From the NCBI GenBank assembly GCA_000004985.1, contig GG738892.1: DNA of 64,000 nucleotides. The stretch is one strand, 5' to 3'. The DNA comes from Naegleria gruberi. Its lineage: Eukaryota. Position 1 is the first letter of the stretch, and each line of letters opens with the position of its first letter. The position numbers and the translations under genes are program-made. The notes under the pieces were generated by a model. That model worked only from the letters and a program-made list of their open reading frames with translations, did no database searches and had not been told where the DNA came from. Of the stretch, positions 52,539 through 58,164 are shown in pieces.

Positions 52539-54086
52539 ATGAAAGGTGCATACCACAGTGTGTTGTTGAAGCATTCAGGTTCATCCTTCCACATGATTGT
52601 TGACACTGAAAAAATGATGTTGACACTTCCTGCTAAATATCCAATAATTAGTTTTTGTGTTTGTTTGGTGATTTTGTTGGCGAGTTGTGGATTGAGTGTT
52701 TGGAAATTAAAAATTGATTCGGATCCTTTTAAACTTTTAACACATTCACATTCGAATGCCAAGTTGAAACGAGACGAAATGAATTTATTGTTTCCTAAAT
52801 ATAATATATGAGAGCAGTGAGCATATTTAAGGGATCCTCTAGANNNNNNNNNNNNNNNNNNNNNNNNNNNNNNNNNNNNNNNNNNNNNNNNNNNNNNNNN
52901 NNNNNNNNNNNNNNNNNNNNNNNNNNNNNNNNNNNNNNNNNNNNNNNNNNNNNNNNNNNNNNNNNNNNNNNNNNNNNNNNNNNNNNNNNNNNNNNNNNNN
53001 NNNNNNNNNNNNNNNNNNNNNNNNNNNNNNNNNNNNNNNNNNNNNNNNNNNNNNNNNNNNNNNNNNNNNNNNNNNNNNNNNNNNNNNNNNNNNNNNNNNN
53101 NNNNNNNNNNNNNNNNNNNNNNNNNNNNNNNNNNNNNNNNNNNNNNNNNNNNNNNNNNNNNNNNNNNNNNNNNNNNNNNNNNNNNNNNNNNNNNNNNNNN
53201 NNNNNNNNNNNNNNNNNNNNNNNNNNNNNNNNNNNNNNNNNNNNNNNNNNNNNNNNNNNNNNNNNNNNNNNNNNNNNNNNNNNNNNNNNNNNNNNNNNNN
53301 NNNNNNNNNNNNNNNNNNNNNNNNNNNNNNNNNNNNNNNNNNNNNNNNNNNNNNNNNNNNNNNNNNNNNNNNNNNNNNNNNNNNNNNNNNNNNNNNNNNN
53401 NNNNNNNNNNNNNNNNNNNNNNNNNNNNNNNNNNNNNNNNNNNNNNNNNNNNNNNNNNNNNNNNNNNNNNNNNNNNNNNNNNNNNNNNNNNNNNNNNNNN
53501 NNNNNNNNNNNNNNNNNNNNNNNNNNNNNNNNNNNNNNNNNNNNNNNNNNNNNNNNNNNNNNNNNNNNNNNNNNNNNNNNNNNNNNNNNNNNNNNNNNNN
53601 NNNNNNNNNNNNNNNNNNNNNNNNNNNNNNNNNNNNNNNNNNNNNNNNNNNNNNNNNNNNNNNNNNNNNNNNNNNNNNNNNNNNNNNNNNNNNNNNNNNN
53701 NNNNNNNNNNNNNNNNNNNNNNNNNNNNNNNNNNNNNNNNNNNNNNNNNNNNNNNNNNNNNNNNNNNNNNNNNNNNNNNNNNNNNNNNNNNNNNNNNNNN
53801 NNNNNNNNNNNNNNNNNNNNNNNNNNNNNNNNNNNNNNNNNNNNNNNNNNNNNNNNNNNNNNNNNNNNNNNNNNACCTCTTGACTATTCCTTTATTGATT
53901 TGTTCCTTGTCAACTGTGGTCAGCATTCTGCCTCTTGCATTTCATGATATCAAGATTGTGAAAAAGTACTTTTTCGATATTATTATTTTAGGACAAGGTA
54001 TTTTATTGTTTAACGTATTGGTAATATTCCCTGCAATATTATCATTAATTGAAAAGTTGAGATCTAGGAAAATTCCAGCTCTTTAA
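52539..54086 (+). CDS. Patched/Dispatched/RND-superfamily-like multi-pass transporter, copy 1. The N-terminal part and the C-terminal part are separated by a 1032-N gap at 52843..53874.
   Basis: The N-terminus has TM1 (ISFCVCLVILLASCGLSVW) followed by KLKIDSDPFKLLTHSHSNAKLKRDEMNLLFPKY, resembling the post-TM1 IETDPxxLW loop-start of RND/SSD proteins. After the gap, 53877..54086 encodes LLTIPLLICSLSTVVSILPLAFHDIKIVKKYFFDIIILGQGILLFNVLVIFPAILSLIEKLRSRK, identical to the end of copy 2. Confidence 0.45.
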
Positions 54087-55107
54087 TTCTACCAAACTCT
54101 TTCCTATTTTACCCACTAAAATCTAAACCTACCAATAAAACAAATTTGAATCACCAAAGCCATGTCGAGTATTGCATGATAAAATAATTTTCCCTTTTCC
54201 TTAACTTTCACGAAATAATTGCTACGGTACATCAACAATAATACTGTTAACAATTTATACTTCAAGATGATTGGTTAGTGTCAGCAATCGCAAGTCACAT
54301 ATATTTGGTAAAACGTTGTTTTAGGTTTTCATTTGTGTACAATAAATTATTACAAAAATGTGAACAGAGCTTATTGTTAACTACGATTTGTCACTAATCC
54401 CTAGACAAATTCTGTTTCAGTAATTTGTGAATTAAATATCGTTAGTATTGCTTGTAAAGAATAGACGGTGGGCAGTACCATGTATTCGTTGTTCCAACTA
54501 GAGTCGAGCCAATTTTATTAATATTTTAATATTATTTATTCTTCTGATGATATTTCGTCGCCACTTTATTCATCACTTCCACTTTGTGGATTCTGATGCA
54601 TCATCTTCCTCATATTCTGATCCGCTGGTAGTATCGTCTTGGTAAATTCTTGGAAAGCTTTTGGAGTTTATGGTTTGATGGTTGGTATTTCATCATCAAC
54701 AGGATTTCCTCTTTTTGTTGCCAATTTCTTGGTTTCTTTGTTGTTGGAGATTTAGATGTAAGAAGAAGATTCCAGTCAAAGAAACTTCCTGATGATGGGT
54801 TGTTGTATTAATTTTCTAACCAACTGCCATGTTGTTCAGTTGCTTCCAAATACCAGCTTGTGATTGGACATTGTGGCCAGTAGACAAAACCTAGTAAAGA
54901 AGTTCCATAAACTTCATTCTCCAAACAAGTGATTTTGTTGCAATTTGCCAAAGATGCAGTGATAAGAAGAAACTGGTTAGCGAAGGATTATTATTTAAGG
55001 TGATGTGTTTCAGAGAAACCTAATCAATTAAATTTATTCTCGTAGCGCCTCTAATAATGAAATTGAATATAACAGAAATTGGTGACAATTCTACACAACA
55101 AGATGAA

Positions 55108-55338
55108 TCAACCATATAAACATTGACCTTCAATTGAAAGATAAGACAAGTGTTTCATATCACGAATGACTGACTCTCCTTCAATCTGAATTTCATTTTC
55201 TGAAATATCTAGGTGTGTTAATTTATCCATTCTACTGATTGAGATGGCACCAGCATTACTAATAAAACAATCTTGGATATAAAGTTCATTCAATTGTTTC
55301 ATTTCACTAATCATCCTTGCTCCTTCATCACCAATACT
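55108..55338 (-). pseudogene. 3'-terminal fragment of an RNI-type LRR gene (copy A). The upstream body is lost in the N-gap at 55339..55388.
   Basis: It encodes ...SIGDEGARMISEMKQLNELYIQDCFISNAGAISISRMDKLTHLDISENEIQIEGESVIRDMKHLSYLSIEGQCLYG*, the same LRR family as 14863..16129. It lies within the segmental duplication. Confidence 0.45.
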
Positions 55339-55388
55339 NNNNNNNNNNNNNNNNNNNNNNNNNNNNNNNNNNNNNNNNNNNNNNNNNN

Positions 55389-56187: not shown

Positions 56188-56698
56188 TTCTACCCTCTCT
56201 GGATAATTCTCAAGATAATCTAGTCAATGTTAATATCAAAATCTTCGTGAAATTGCTACGGTTCATCAACAATAATACTGTTAACAATTTATACAATGTT
56301 TCAAGATGATTGGTTAGTGTCAGCAATCGCAAGTCACATATATTTGGTAAAACGTTGTTTTAGGTTTTCGTTTGTGTACAATAAATTATTACAAAAATGT
56401 GAACAGAGCTTATTGTTGCCTTGTTAACTACCATTTGTCACTAATCCCTAGACAAATTCCATTTCAGTAATTTGTGAATTAAATATCGTTAGTATTGCTT
56501 GTTGTAAGAAGTTCATTCTCCAAACAAGTGATTTTGTTGCAATTCGCCAAAGATGCAGTGATAAGAAGAAACTGGTAAGCGAAGGATTATTATTTAAGGT
56601 GATGTGTTTCAGAGAAACCTAAATTTATTCTCGTAGCGCCTCTAATAATGAAATTGAATATAACAGAAATTGGTGGCAATTCTACACAACAAGATGAA

Positions 56699-56893
56699 TC
56701 AACCATATAAACATTGACTTTCAATTGAAAGATAAGACAAGTGTTTCATATCACGAATGACTGACTCCACTTCAATCTGAATTTCATTTTCTGAAATATC
56801 TAGGTGTGTTAATTTATCCATTCTACTGATTGAGATGGCACCAGTCGAACTCGACTTTAAATGATTTTTCGATCCTTCAAAAAAAATACACAA
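56699..56893 (-). pseudogene. 3'-terminal fragment of an LRR gene (copy B), truncated upstream.
   Basis: STGAISISRMDKLTHLDISENEIQIEVESVIRDMKHLSYLSIESQCLYG* is near-identical to copy A. Upstream sequence diverges at ~56830. Confidence 0.4.
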
Positions 56894-58164
56894 GTTGTTT
56901 ATTCGTCTGACATATCAGCATCAGTGTCAGTAGATTCACCATCCGAACAATAGTGACTACTAAAGTCTTGGTCATCAACACTTTCAACATCACTACCATC
57001 ACTTAGGATTATCATTTTGTATTTAAGGAATTTAACAGCTGAAGGTTATCTATACGGATTCTATATATCAGATTTTGATCATTTTTTGCCAGTTTTTATG
57101 ATTTTACATATTTTAGTTTGTTATCTCAATATATATATATATTTCAAATGTAAACCCCACTTATTAATTAGTAGCTTAATTCTTTATAGTTATAAATGGA
57201 GAAAAACCTAAATTATTGATCAATAGGAGTTGCTTAATGACTACTAAAACATAAAAATTGTTCAAGATGAATAGAAACATTATCAGACTCCTATCAAGTT
57301 CTGTTGGTATTCTGTTAAAATACCTTTTACTACTTAAACACAAAGAAGAACAATTCTTGGAGTTTTTTTGAAACTTTCTTGATTGCTCTCCTTTTATGAG
57401 AAGAAGTTTGGGTAACCTAATATATATTTTCATGTATTTAACATGGCTAAAAAAAATACAATAAATTTCAATTTCTGCAGGCAAACCAACCTATTTACTG
57501 AGGGTGTTGAAGGCTTACCTTTACAGGAAGTTTGTACAACATGATTTATTGTTCTCTCCTAAAAAACCTGTAATGGGATGTTTGAAAATCGTTGACAAGA
57601 ACATTTGTACGTTTTTAATTATTGATAGAGAATGCTTACCAAGATGTAAGTAGTACATGTTGAACAGTATTCAAAACAATACAACTGAGTGCATTGTGAT
57701 TGTAGCCGGAAAGATTTTTCCTCTGGTCTTCTTTCCAGGAAAGAGTTTTGCTGAAAAGTGTTTCCTGGAAATTCCAGTAAACAATATTGATTCATCCTTA
57801 TTTGAGTTGTTTTATTACCATAATGGCAAAAGTGACTGTATGTGAAGCGTCCACCTTAATTTGTAATTTTTTGTTCTGAAGTAGCAAACCAATGACGGAA
57901 AATATTAGGAAAAGACATCATGTACTAATTTACTATTTTATTTGATGAAATCAAGTGGAGAATACATAAAACAGATGTTGCTACAAGAAAACACAATGCT
58001 AATAATAAAAATATAATTTTATTTAATTATTGAAATAATTCAAGGTGGAAAATCAGCAAGATTTACGACCTTGAAAATTTACCTTGTTGGAAAATTCACC
58101 ATTTGTGAATTTTATTGATGGTGTGATGATGATGACCATTAAGATATTTGCCTTAATGATCGGA

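Follow-up and report, generated by a model that had tools for sequence, protein, structure and literature searches.

The stretch of DNA analysed here (the window, 64 kb in all) comes from the subtelomeric end of a Naegleria gruberi NEG-M scaffold, and we take the scaffold to be of Sanger whole-genome-shotgun origin, with library types and assembler judged partly from a vector remnant found in it. A transporter locus lies 6 to 9 kb away from (TTTGGG)n telomere repeats, with genes of fast-evolving F-box/LRR families nearby. Its features are as follows.

48887-52128, EGF/FN3 gene.
52539..52808, plus strand, putative 5' exon of the transporter, an N-terminal ORF of 90 amino acids taken from the ORF list.
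52831..52843, no strand, GGGATCCTCTAGA at the contig's final bases, read directly from the sequence.
52844..53874, sized gap of 1,031 N.
53875..55338, contig A, 1,464 nt with gaps on both sides; suspect, probably a misplaced alternative version.
53877..54086, plus strand, transporter C-terminus in block A, 69 codons and the stop, 100% identical to 55978-56187.
54094..54216, A-specific block of 123 nt that begins 7 nt past the stop codon; its counterpart in B is an unrelated 56 nt.
54456..54909, no strand, A-only intergenic segment.
55108..55338, minus strand, 3' end of an LRR gene, with its stop at 55108-55110 and the ORF still open at the gap edge.
55339..55388, gap of 50 N.
55389-59308, contig 3, 3,920 nt, which carries block B.
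55390..56187, plus strand, transporter residues 605-869 and the stop; NAEGRDRAFT_71757, annotated from the Met at 55462.
55978..56844, no strand, block B, the counterpart of block A within contig 3.
56702..56844, minus strand, truncated LRR fragment in block B, broken in the middle of a repeat at 56844.
56899..57045, minus strand, 3' end of an unrelated, acidic-tailed ORF (...DGESTDTDADMSDE*).

The sequence GGATCCTCTAGA occurs once in the window, abutting the sized gap, and we take GGGATCCTCTAGA to be the remnant of a pUC-type cloning-vector polylinker (SmaI half-site, BamHI, XbaI). Five of the seven gaps in the window are exactly 50 N long, a frequency that suggests 50 N to be a floor value for gap size.

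Apart from the 90-residue N-terminal ORF, the window covers only residues 605-869 and, in block A, 801-869 of the transporter, in the numbering of the paralog P0028 (NAEGRDRAFT_67529). This paralog, of 869 amino acids, lies on another scaffold (427,589 nt) and is identical at 264/265 positions. It is an N-terminally truncated model and, together with the 959-residue P0027, served as the full-length relative; a search of 5.8 billion proteins turned up a single close relative. The N-terminal ORF holds a first transmembrane segment followed by 'DSDPFKLL...LLFP', and its residues 57-86 align to residues 40-69 of P0027 (E 0.003). The original prediction had called the gene RND/Patched-like, a label that a full HMMER scan and the paralog matches bear out only indirectly, the protein being probably a divergent Patched/NPC1-like one. 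Its C-terminal five-helix bundle matches proteins of 830 to 1250 amino acids that carry Pfam Patched and Sterol-sensing domains (phmmer E 1e-7 to 1e-3). The sterol-sensing part (TM2-6) of the gene falls outside the sequenced window and was judged on P0028 and P0027: residues 169-272 of P0028 match the sterol-sensing region of PTCH1 (E 2e-5), while P0027 reaches 22.8 bits with Pfam Sterol-sensing (PF12349), marginally over the cut-off of 22.3, and 24.5 bits with NPC1_MLD, under that model's 27-bit cut-off. No Pfam model was passed by the transporter fragments of the window or by P0028. A half-size RND protein (a 6-helix half transporter, as the best distant hit, P0002 of 448 amino acids, seemed to be) would make the 1,031-N gap right for a real first copy; we rejected this on finding that P0002, encoded on a 1,480-nt contig, is a piece of P0027.

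Block A (53877-55253) matches block B (55978-56844) on the same strand, with the 50-N gap separating their contigs and a similarity far above chance (BLAST E 1e-104 to 1e-158), so that the two near-identical blocks originally described are indeed present in the sequence. The start of A at 53877 also stood, whereas the ends had to be corrected to 55253 and 56844 and the start of B to 55978. Gaps had been said to bound both copies, which holds for A, a whole 1,464-nt contig, but not for B, which lies inside a 3,920-nt contig with transporter coding sequence on its left and unrelated sequence on its right. The left limit of A is the contig end, and the upstream extent of the repeat seen here is thus a lower bound only. 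From that limit 217/217 positions are identical (53877-54093 and 55978-56194), comprising the transporter's final 69 codons, the stop and 7 nt more. Then comes a replaced block, in which 54094-54216 of A (123 nt) and 56195-56250 of B (56 nt) are not alignable. Similarity resumes between 54217-54455 and 56251-56502 (5 mismatches, with indels of 5 nt and 8 nt) and again between 54910-55253 and 56509-56844 (6 mismatches, one 8-nt indel); this last part includes the final 48 codons of the antisense LRR ORF and ends at the right limit of homology, 55253 in A and 56844 in B. Outside the 217-nt coding part, mismatches therefore amount to 11/572 (1.9%), in addition to the replaced block and the small indels. 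Altogether 797 of the 1,464 bases of contig A (54%) align to contig 3 with order and orientation kept, the aligned parts being 97.9-100% identical, and there are three A-only stretches besides (54094-54216, 54462-54890 and 55254-55338). A and B are distinct sequences and hence cannot be one set of reads placed twice.

The LRR label was borne out as well. The ORF at 55108-55338 contains three 24-residue repeats, and its translation (55111-55338, minus strand) scores above the Pfam cut-offs with LRR_8 (32.7 bits) and LRR_4 (32.8 bits; cut-off 27) and with LRR_6 (29.6 bits; cut-off 23.4). An LRR paralog at 14863-16129 ends likewise, directly after its last repeat. In contig A the LRR repeat continues in frame beyond 55253, whereas the fragment in block B, with 2 amino-acid changes relative to A, breaks off at 56844, 54 nt from the acidic-tail ORF. 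The LRR sequence of contig A was not found in any annotated N. gruberi protein.

The extra segment announced for A exists, though the limits of 54470-54900 and the size of about 420 bp had to be revised to 440 nt between direct repeats or 454 nt by alignment. The repeats at its borders, CTTGTAAAGAA (54451-54461) and CTAGTAAAGAA (54891-54901), match at 10/11 positions, and a direct repeat as good at this fixed spacing is rare (2/51,640 window positions). The suggestion of a mobile element found no support and was rejected: the border repeat aside, the segment has no terminal inverted repeats or poly(A), no second copy within the 64 kb, and nothing matching it among proteins, tRNAs or Rfam families. 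Given the border repeat and the lack of transposon hallmarks, the difference is best read as a probable microhomology deletion in B; an insertion with target-site duplication would give the same border repeat, so the polarity is what we infer. As expected of a microhomology-mediated deletion, the 440 nt are bracketed by repeats and B retains roughly one copy at the junction, although this junction, GCTTGTTGTAAGAAGTTCATTC, is not clean and shows 2-3 extra changes and a further 10 nt missing. A 54-codon minus-strand ORF crossing the right border had suggested that the segment might be the last exon or exons of the LRR gene. This was dropped since the ORF has no homolog and is unremarkable in AT-rich DNA, and since the paralog at 14863-16129 ends after its last repeat as the contig-A ORF does. 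A cloning deletion is also an unlikely cause: it is the larger, multi-read contig that lacks the segment, and SNPs and indels of 5-8 nt separate the copies as well.

The space between the contigs was compared with what each arrangement would require. An intact first copy needs about 840 codons, or about 2.5 kb, between 52808 and 53877, where the scaffold offers 1,068 nt. An intact second copy needs at least 604 codons, an N-terminus and the rest of the LRR gene, at least 3 kb in total, against a gap of 50 N. For a single gene about 1.9 kb is needed, and the combined space of 2,581 nt suffices. There is thus no room for two transporter genes at the scaffolded spacing, with the reservation that gap sizes are estimates and values from long-insert libraries can be wrong by kilobases. 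No contiguous sequence contains both copies and their junction, one gap lying between the copies and another before copy A.

This end is plainly scaffolded in an unreliable way. It joins two (TTTGGG)n telomere arrays of like orientation over a 50-N gap, and the sequences adjacent to them have in common only a 73-nt element with 84% identity; to this is added the vector polylinker remnant before the 1,031-N gap. Only two other internal repeats remain in the 64 kb, and both straddle 50-N gaps. One pairs 14527-14687 with 15002-15228 (98.7% identity, 66-nt indel). The other pairs 47427-47694 with 47745-48732 (746-nt indel), running from the first base of the right contig to the last base of the left one, a clean dovetail overlap across the gap at 47695-47744. 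A Sanger read is longer than either, so that real repeats of their size should not break an assembly, and the chance of three independent repeats all straddling gaps is roughly 0.001. The three repeat pairs are mostly similar in divergence: in most aligned segments about 1-2% of positions mismatch. The pair at 47.7 kb also has a more diverged segment, with 92.8% identity in 139 columns, indel columns included.

Between a real tandem array and an assembly artefact, the alternatives set out in the original prediction, the small gaps, the gap-straddling repeats and the chained telomere arrays favour the artefact. The reading we prefer, at about an even chance, is that contig A represents block B in an alternative version that was left unmerged, the tandem arrangement being a product of the assembly. 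One Patched/NPC1-like gene would then lie here, with its 5' exon at 52539-52808, its body in the unsequenced gap and its last 265 codons at 55390-56187, and contig A (53875-55338) would be a second version of 55978-56844 and beyond, most likely from the other haplotype. The two versions would be identical in the coding part and differ downstream by about 2% substitutions and by indels of 123 versus 56 nt, of 440 nt and of a larger size, the last removing the 5' part of the LRR gene in version B. The 440-nt one is presumably a deletion in version B between the 11-nt direct repeats. Because of these downstream differences the assembler could not have merged the versions; mate pairs would have tied contig A to the neighbourhood, the scaffolder would for that reason have dropped it into the gap inside the transporter gene, and it would have been pushed against the next contig with the minimum 50-N spacer. 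The like pattern at two other gaps is observed; the allelic nature of the versions and the behaviour of the scaffolder are inferred from it and from the anatomy of the blocks. [quoted passage not shown] Against an allelic origin, one haplotype requires three sizeable indels within 1.5 kb, and gene-disrupting deletions are required at two further places in the 64 kb. Against an artefact, near-identical real repeats also cause gaps, and the transporter gene does duplicate in the genome. Contig A might instead come from a transporter-LRR neighbourhood elsewhere, for example another chromosome end, and have been pulled in by mate pairs within the shared, near-identical transporter; the tandem would again be false, with A and B paralogous rather than allelic. 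This we consider quite unlikely. It agrees with the near-identical transporter on the different 427,589-nt scaffold, with the absence of the gene body here, as if reads from the shared part had been assembled elsewhere, with the two chained telomere-adjacent sequences, which show that more than one chromosome end or version is linked here, and with the fall of identity from 100% to none 7 nt past the stop, as at the border of a gene block that has been homogenised. However, the flanks beyond the replaced block are 97-98% identical over about 580 nt, which fits alleles or a very recent copy better, and no annotated N. gruberi protein has the contig-A LRR sequence, so that no well-assembled second LRR locus is visible. 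Taking the unmerged version and the misplaced paralogous copy together, the tandem arrangement is probably false.

A real local duplication, with two transporter genes in series and an LRR gene between them, seems unlikely. The unit duplicated in tandem would have comprised transporter, flank, whole LRR gene and spacer, and the distal copy would have decayed through the 440-nt deletion, the loss of the LRR 5' part and the replaced block after the stop codon, while selection or gene conversion kept the transporter coding sequence identical; the gaps would be under-sized because near-identical repeats confused the assembler. That A and B are distinct sequences speaks for it, as do the multi-copy state of the transporter, the resemblance of the LRR piece of B to a decayed pseudogene fragment beside an intact transporter end, and the general tendency of subtelomeres to be sites of gene-family expansion. 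The absence of mismatches in the coding part (0/217 against 11/572 elsewhere) also fits two maintained genes when all sites are free to vary (P = 0.015), but is not significant if only synonymous sites vary (P = 0.35). This history, however, needs an error of 1.5 kb in one gap and of at least 3 kb in the other, which would put contig 1 and contig 3 about 7.5 kb apart and not 2.5 kb, and gap-straddling is also seen at two repeats whose shortness should have spared a Sanger assembly any break. A one-step tandem with its boundary at 55253 predicts a truncated LRR gene first and an intact one second, and the scaffold shows the reverse, the proximal A continuing in frame past 55253 and the distal B breaking mid-repeat at 56844; extra events are therefore needed, and the history may have had several steps. 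It appears rather improbable that the transporter is amplified at chromosome ends to three or more near-identical copies, a tandem pair here and one on another chromosome, whose coding parts gene conversion or selection would keep identical while flanking LRR genes decay. The copy-number increase originally proposed holds at the genome level, where the near-identical paralog on the other scaffold shows that the gene does duplicate; at this locus a tandem array is unlikely.

The main value of these observations is in quality control. Should the tandem copy be false, NAEGRDRAFT_71757 would be a model cut short by a gap and stand for a single gene of about 960-1000 amino acids, and counts of "recent duplications" or subtelomeric gene expansion drawn from the 2010 draft assembly would be inflated. 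With gap-straddling repeats, chained telomere arrays and a vector remnant, this scaffold end is unfit for structural inference without long-read re-assembly; a Nanopore re-assembly of N. gruberi exists (PMC12695648). A real duplication would be an ordinary case of subtelomeric gene-family expansion, and an amplified family would mean that a free-living heterolobosean has a subtelomeric transporter family evolving in concert.

Like Patched, NPC1 and Dispatched, the eukaryotic RND-type proteins with a sterol-sensing domain, the putative transporter has a C-terminal five-helix bundle, but it is very divergent. Subtelomeric segmental duplication and gene-family expansion are known at the chromosome ends of yeast, Plasmodium and trypanosomes. 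The locus resembles these cases in its closeness to telomere repeats, its transporter copy on another scaffold and its fast-evolving F-box/LRR neighbours, and differs in that no contiguous two-copy molecule is seen here and that two genes do not fit into the gaps as scaffolded. False segmental duplications arise from haplotype divergence when contained and overlapping duplicate contigs are placed adjacently (Kelley and Salzberg 2010, PMC2864568). That class is defined by a mate-pair test, and a contained haplotype contig is one with 96% identity over 94% of its length (PMC2864568), unlike contig A, of which only 54% aligns. The resemblance lies in the arrangement, as two highly similar copies occur on one scaffold with a gap between them, the short contig being near-identical to part of its neighbour across that gap; the copies differ by SNPs and indels, and other gaps in the window show this signature again.

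Eukaryotic and AT-rich (34% G+C), the window contains seven runs of N: five of exactly 50 N and one each of 1,031 and 1,787 N. The near-identical blocks A and B of the original prediction are present in the sequence, and BLAST E-values of 1e-104 to 1e-158 for A against B exclude chance. The alignment is made up of the following segments.

Segments of the repeat in blocks A and B
A 53877-54093, B 55978-56194: shared 3' coding end of the transporter gene, 217 of 217 bases identical
A 54094-54216 (123 nt), B 56195-56250 (56 nt): replaced block, unrelated
A 54217-54455, B 56251-56502: first part of the shared flank, 5 mismatches and two small indels
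A 54456-54909: A-only segment, absent from B
A 54910-55253, B 56509-56844: second part of the shared flank, 6 mismatches and an 8-nt indel

Past 55253 in A and past 56844 in B, the two bear no relation to each other. Each copy had been described as bounded by N gaps, which holds for block A, a whole contig of 1,464 nt (53875-55338), but not for block B, which is internal to a contig of 3,920 nt (55389-59308) with transporter coding sequence on its left and unrelated DNA on its right.

The 265-codon ORF at 55390-56184 matches NAEGRDRAFT_71757 of Naegleria gruberi NEG-M at 100% identity; the annotation of that protein (241 aa, on a scaffold of 342,059 nt) is a gap-truncated model. No Pfam model recognises this fragment, and the N. 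gruberi members of the Patched/NPC1-like family, which is very divergent, pass none either. When 1.8 billion representative proteins were scanned in full with HMMER, the last ~130 residues of the fragment matched the C termini of proteins of 830 to 1250 aa bearing the Pfam Patched and Sterol-sensing domains. Residues 169-272 of its paralog NAEGRDRAFT_67529 (P0028, 869 aa) resemble the sterol-sensing region of the human and mouse PTCH1 structures (E = 2e-5), and P0027, a 959-aa relative, marginally clears the Pfam Sterol-sensing model. The label "RND/Patched-like" is thus correct, the protein being a highly divergent member. Comparison with P0027 also identifies the ORF at 52539-52808 as the N terminus of such a Patched/NPC1-like protein, in which DP...LLFP comes after the first membrane helix (E = 0.003). 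P0028 lies on a separate scaffold of 427,589 nt and falls in the same 90%-identity cluster as NAEGRDRAFT_71757; its last 265 residues are identical to the window at 264 positions, the sole difference (Y versus L, at 55411-55413, 8 codons from the contig end) being one that may reflect a sequencing error. With P0028, P0027 and P0003 considered, close relatives of the window transporter came solely from environmental or Logan assemblies, at 35 to 46% identity, and a word-indexed search of 5.8 billion proteins matched the gene itself and no other relative. Directly upstream of the transporter 5' exon, on the minus strand, 48887-52128 holds two long adjoining ORFs (487 and 593 aa) with a secreted or surface-type product carrying EGF-like repeats, an FN3 domain and a hydrophobic C-terminal tail.

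On the minus strand of contig A, 55111-55338 encodes three 24-residue leucine-rich repeats, for which LRR_8 and LRR_4 exceed their cut-offs, in an ORF still open at 55338. Because the F-box/LRR paralog at 14863-16129 also terminates straight after its last repeat, the stop at 55108-55110 probably marks the genuine end of this LRR gene. The A-only segment would thus be intergenic, between two convergent 3' ends. It had been put forward as a possible mobile element, to be checked for terminal repeats or target-site duplications; its borders do carry direct repeats, CTTGTAAAGAA (54451-54461) and CTAGTAAAGAA (54891-54901), 440 nt apart, but there are no terminal inverted repeats. Among 51,640 positions of the window, 2 have a repeat matching in 10 of 11 bases at a fixed spacing, a rarity that makes the border repeat meaningful. 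The segment has no poly(A) and no second copy within the 64-kb window, and protein, tRNA and Rfam searches with it gave no match. At the junction in B about one copy of the repeat is kept; a few other changes are present and 10 more nt are missing. Most simply, B lost the segment by deletion between short direct repeats; an insertion with target-site duplication, to which the same border repeats could belong, is formally conceivable.

Besides A/B and the telomeric ends, self-comparison of the whole window gave only two repeat pairs, both spanning 50-N gaps. The first (14527-14687 versus 15002-15228, gap at 14690-14739) has 98.7% identity and a 66-nt (22-codon) indel and is probably a further unmerged alternative version; its left member, located at the left contig's end, corresponds to the N-terminal coding portion of the F-box/LRR gene at 14863-16129 but lacks the first 46 codons. 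In the second, the last 268 nt of an 805-nt contig (46890-47694) recur within the first 988 nt of the next (47745-48732; gap at 47695-47744), the match starting exactly where the right contig begins, stopping exactly where the left one ends and containing a 746-nt indel. After the 3' end of a cyclase-like gene, the left contig goes straight into the final ~35 codons of an F-box-like ORF. The additional 746 nt of the right contig, a segment with GT at its start and AG at its end, contain most of this ORF (47921-48718). The repeats in these two pairs measure 90 to 140 nt, far below Sanger read length; real repeats of that size should not break an assembly, whereas overlapping contigs differing by an indel would. 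By a rough estimate, the chance of three independent repeats each enclosing a gap is ~0.001. Divergence across the three pairs is about 1 to 2% in most aligned segments, with a more diverged one in the 47.7-kb pair (92.8% identity across 139 columns, indel columns counted), and this broad similarity fits one common cause.

The A/B locus lies 6 to 9 kb from a chromosome end. Arrays of (TTTGGG)n, the candidate telomere repeat published for N. gruberi (PMC3622300), occupy 62605-63138 and 63708-64000, both G-rich on the plus strand, with a 50-N gap and 520 nt of unique sequence between them. The explanation is either that one scaffold chains two chromosome ends or haplotypes, or that an interstitial telomere array of >530 nt is present; the telomere-adjacent regions have only one 73-nt element in common (62326-62397 and 63241-63313, 84%). 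The last 13 bases of the contig preceding the 1,031-N gap (52831-52843) read GGGATCCTCTAGA, which we take to be a pUC-type plasmid polylinker remnant (SmaI half-site, BamHI, XbaI), that is, cloning vector left untrimmed in the public assembly; the same problem may touch the ORF stop at 52809-52811 and the sequence that follows it. With telomere arrays of the same polarity across a 50-N gap and vector before the 1,031-N gap, the scaffold can plainly not be relied on at this end. For the NEG-M strain there are Nanopore reads and a re-assembly (PMC12695648).

Space requirements were calibrated on P0027 and P0028. Only transporter residues 605-869 and 801-869 are represented in the window. Between 52808 and 53877 the scaffold offers 1,068 nt, whereas an intact first copy would take up ~840 codons (roughly 2.5 kb); an intact second copy would have to fit at least 604 codons, the N terminus and the missing part of the LRR gene into a 50-N gap. 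One gene alone needs ~1.9 kb, and 2,581 nt are there once contig A is removed; introns or errors of estimation could account for the difference.

Between a real tandem array and an assembler artefact, the two options originally left side by side, the latter is better supported: space, local gap pattern, scaffold end and junction logic all indicate that the tandem arrangement is probably not real. As to the junctions, a one-step tandem duplication ending at 55253 predicts a truncated LRR in the first copy and an intact one in the second. The observed order is reversed, as A reads on in frame into a regular repeat while B breaks off within one, 54 nt away from the stop codon of an unrelated ORF, so that a real duplication would need extra steps. 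It would be an ordinary subtelomeric duplication, and we consider it unlikely, even though the A and B versions are distinct sequences, the genome demonstrably has more than one copy of the transporter, gaps also arise from near-identical real repeats and gap sizes are estimates only. Moreover, only 54% of contig A aligns to its neighbor, short of the strict criterion for a contained haplotype contig (PMC2864568). Coding mismatches of 0/217 versus 11/572 outside could mean two maintained genes, but the difference is not significant if variation is allowed at synonymous sites alone (P = 0.35). In a variant of the artefact reading, contig A would derive from a paralogous copy at another chromosome end, which seems improbable.

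Most likely, then, the tandem feature is not really on the chromosome. That contig A is an unmerged allelic version of the block B region is a reading we regard as evenly balanced between right and wrong. The locus would hold one transporter gene, its body, nearly identical to the paralog found on the 427,589-nt scaffold, having been left as a gap. The two homologues would be identical over the last 217 nt of coding sequence and differ downstream by about 2% substitutions, the replaced block and the 440-nt indel, with a further, larger indel removing the 5' part of the LRR gene from version B. Version-A reads may have formed a separate small contig whose mates pointed to this neighborhood, and the scaffolder would have set it in the gap, pressed to the next contig with the minimum spacer, leaving 1,031 as the remainder of about 2,545. 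Naegleria has been described as mainly heterozygous diploid (PMC9928731), and the A/B arrangement shows the features published for false segmental duplications that arise when separately assembled haplotypes are set next to each other (PMC2864568).
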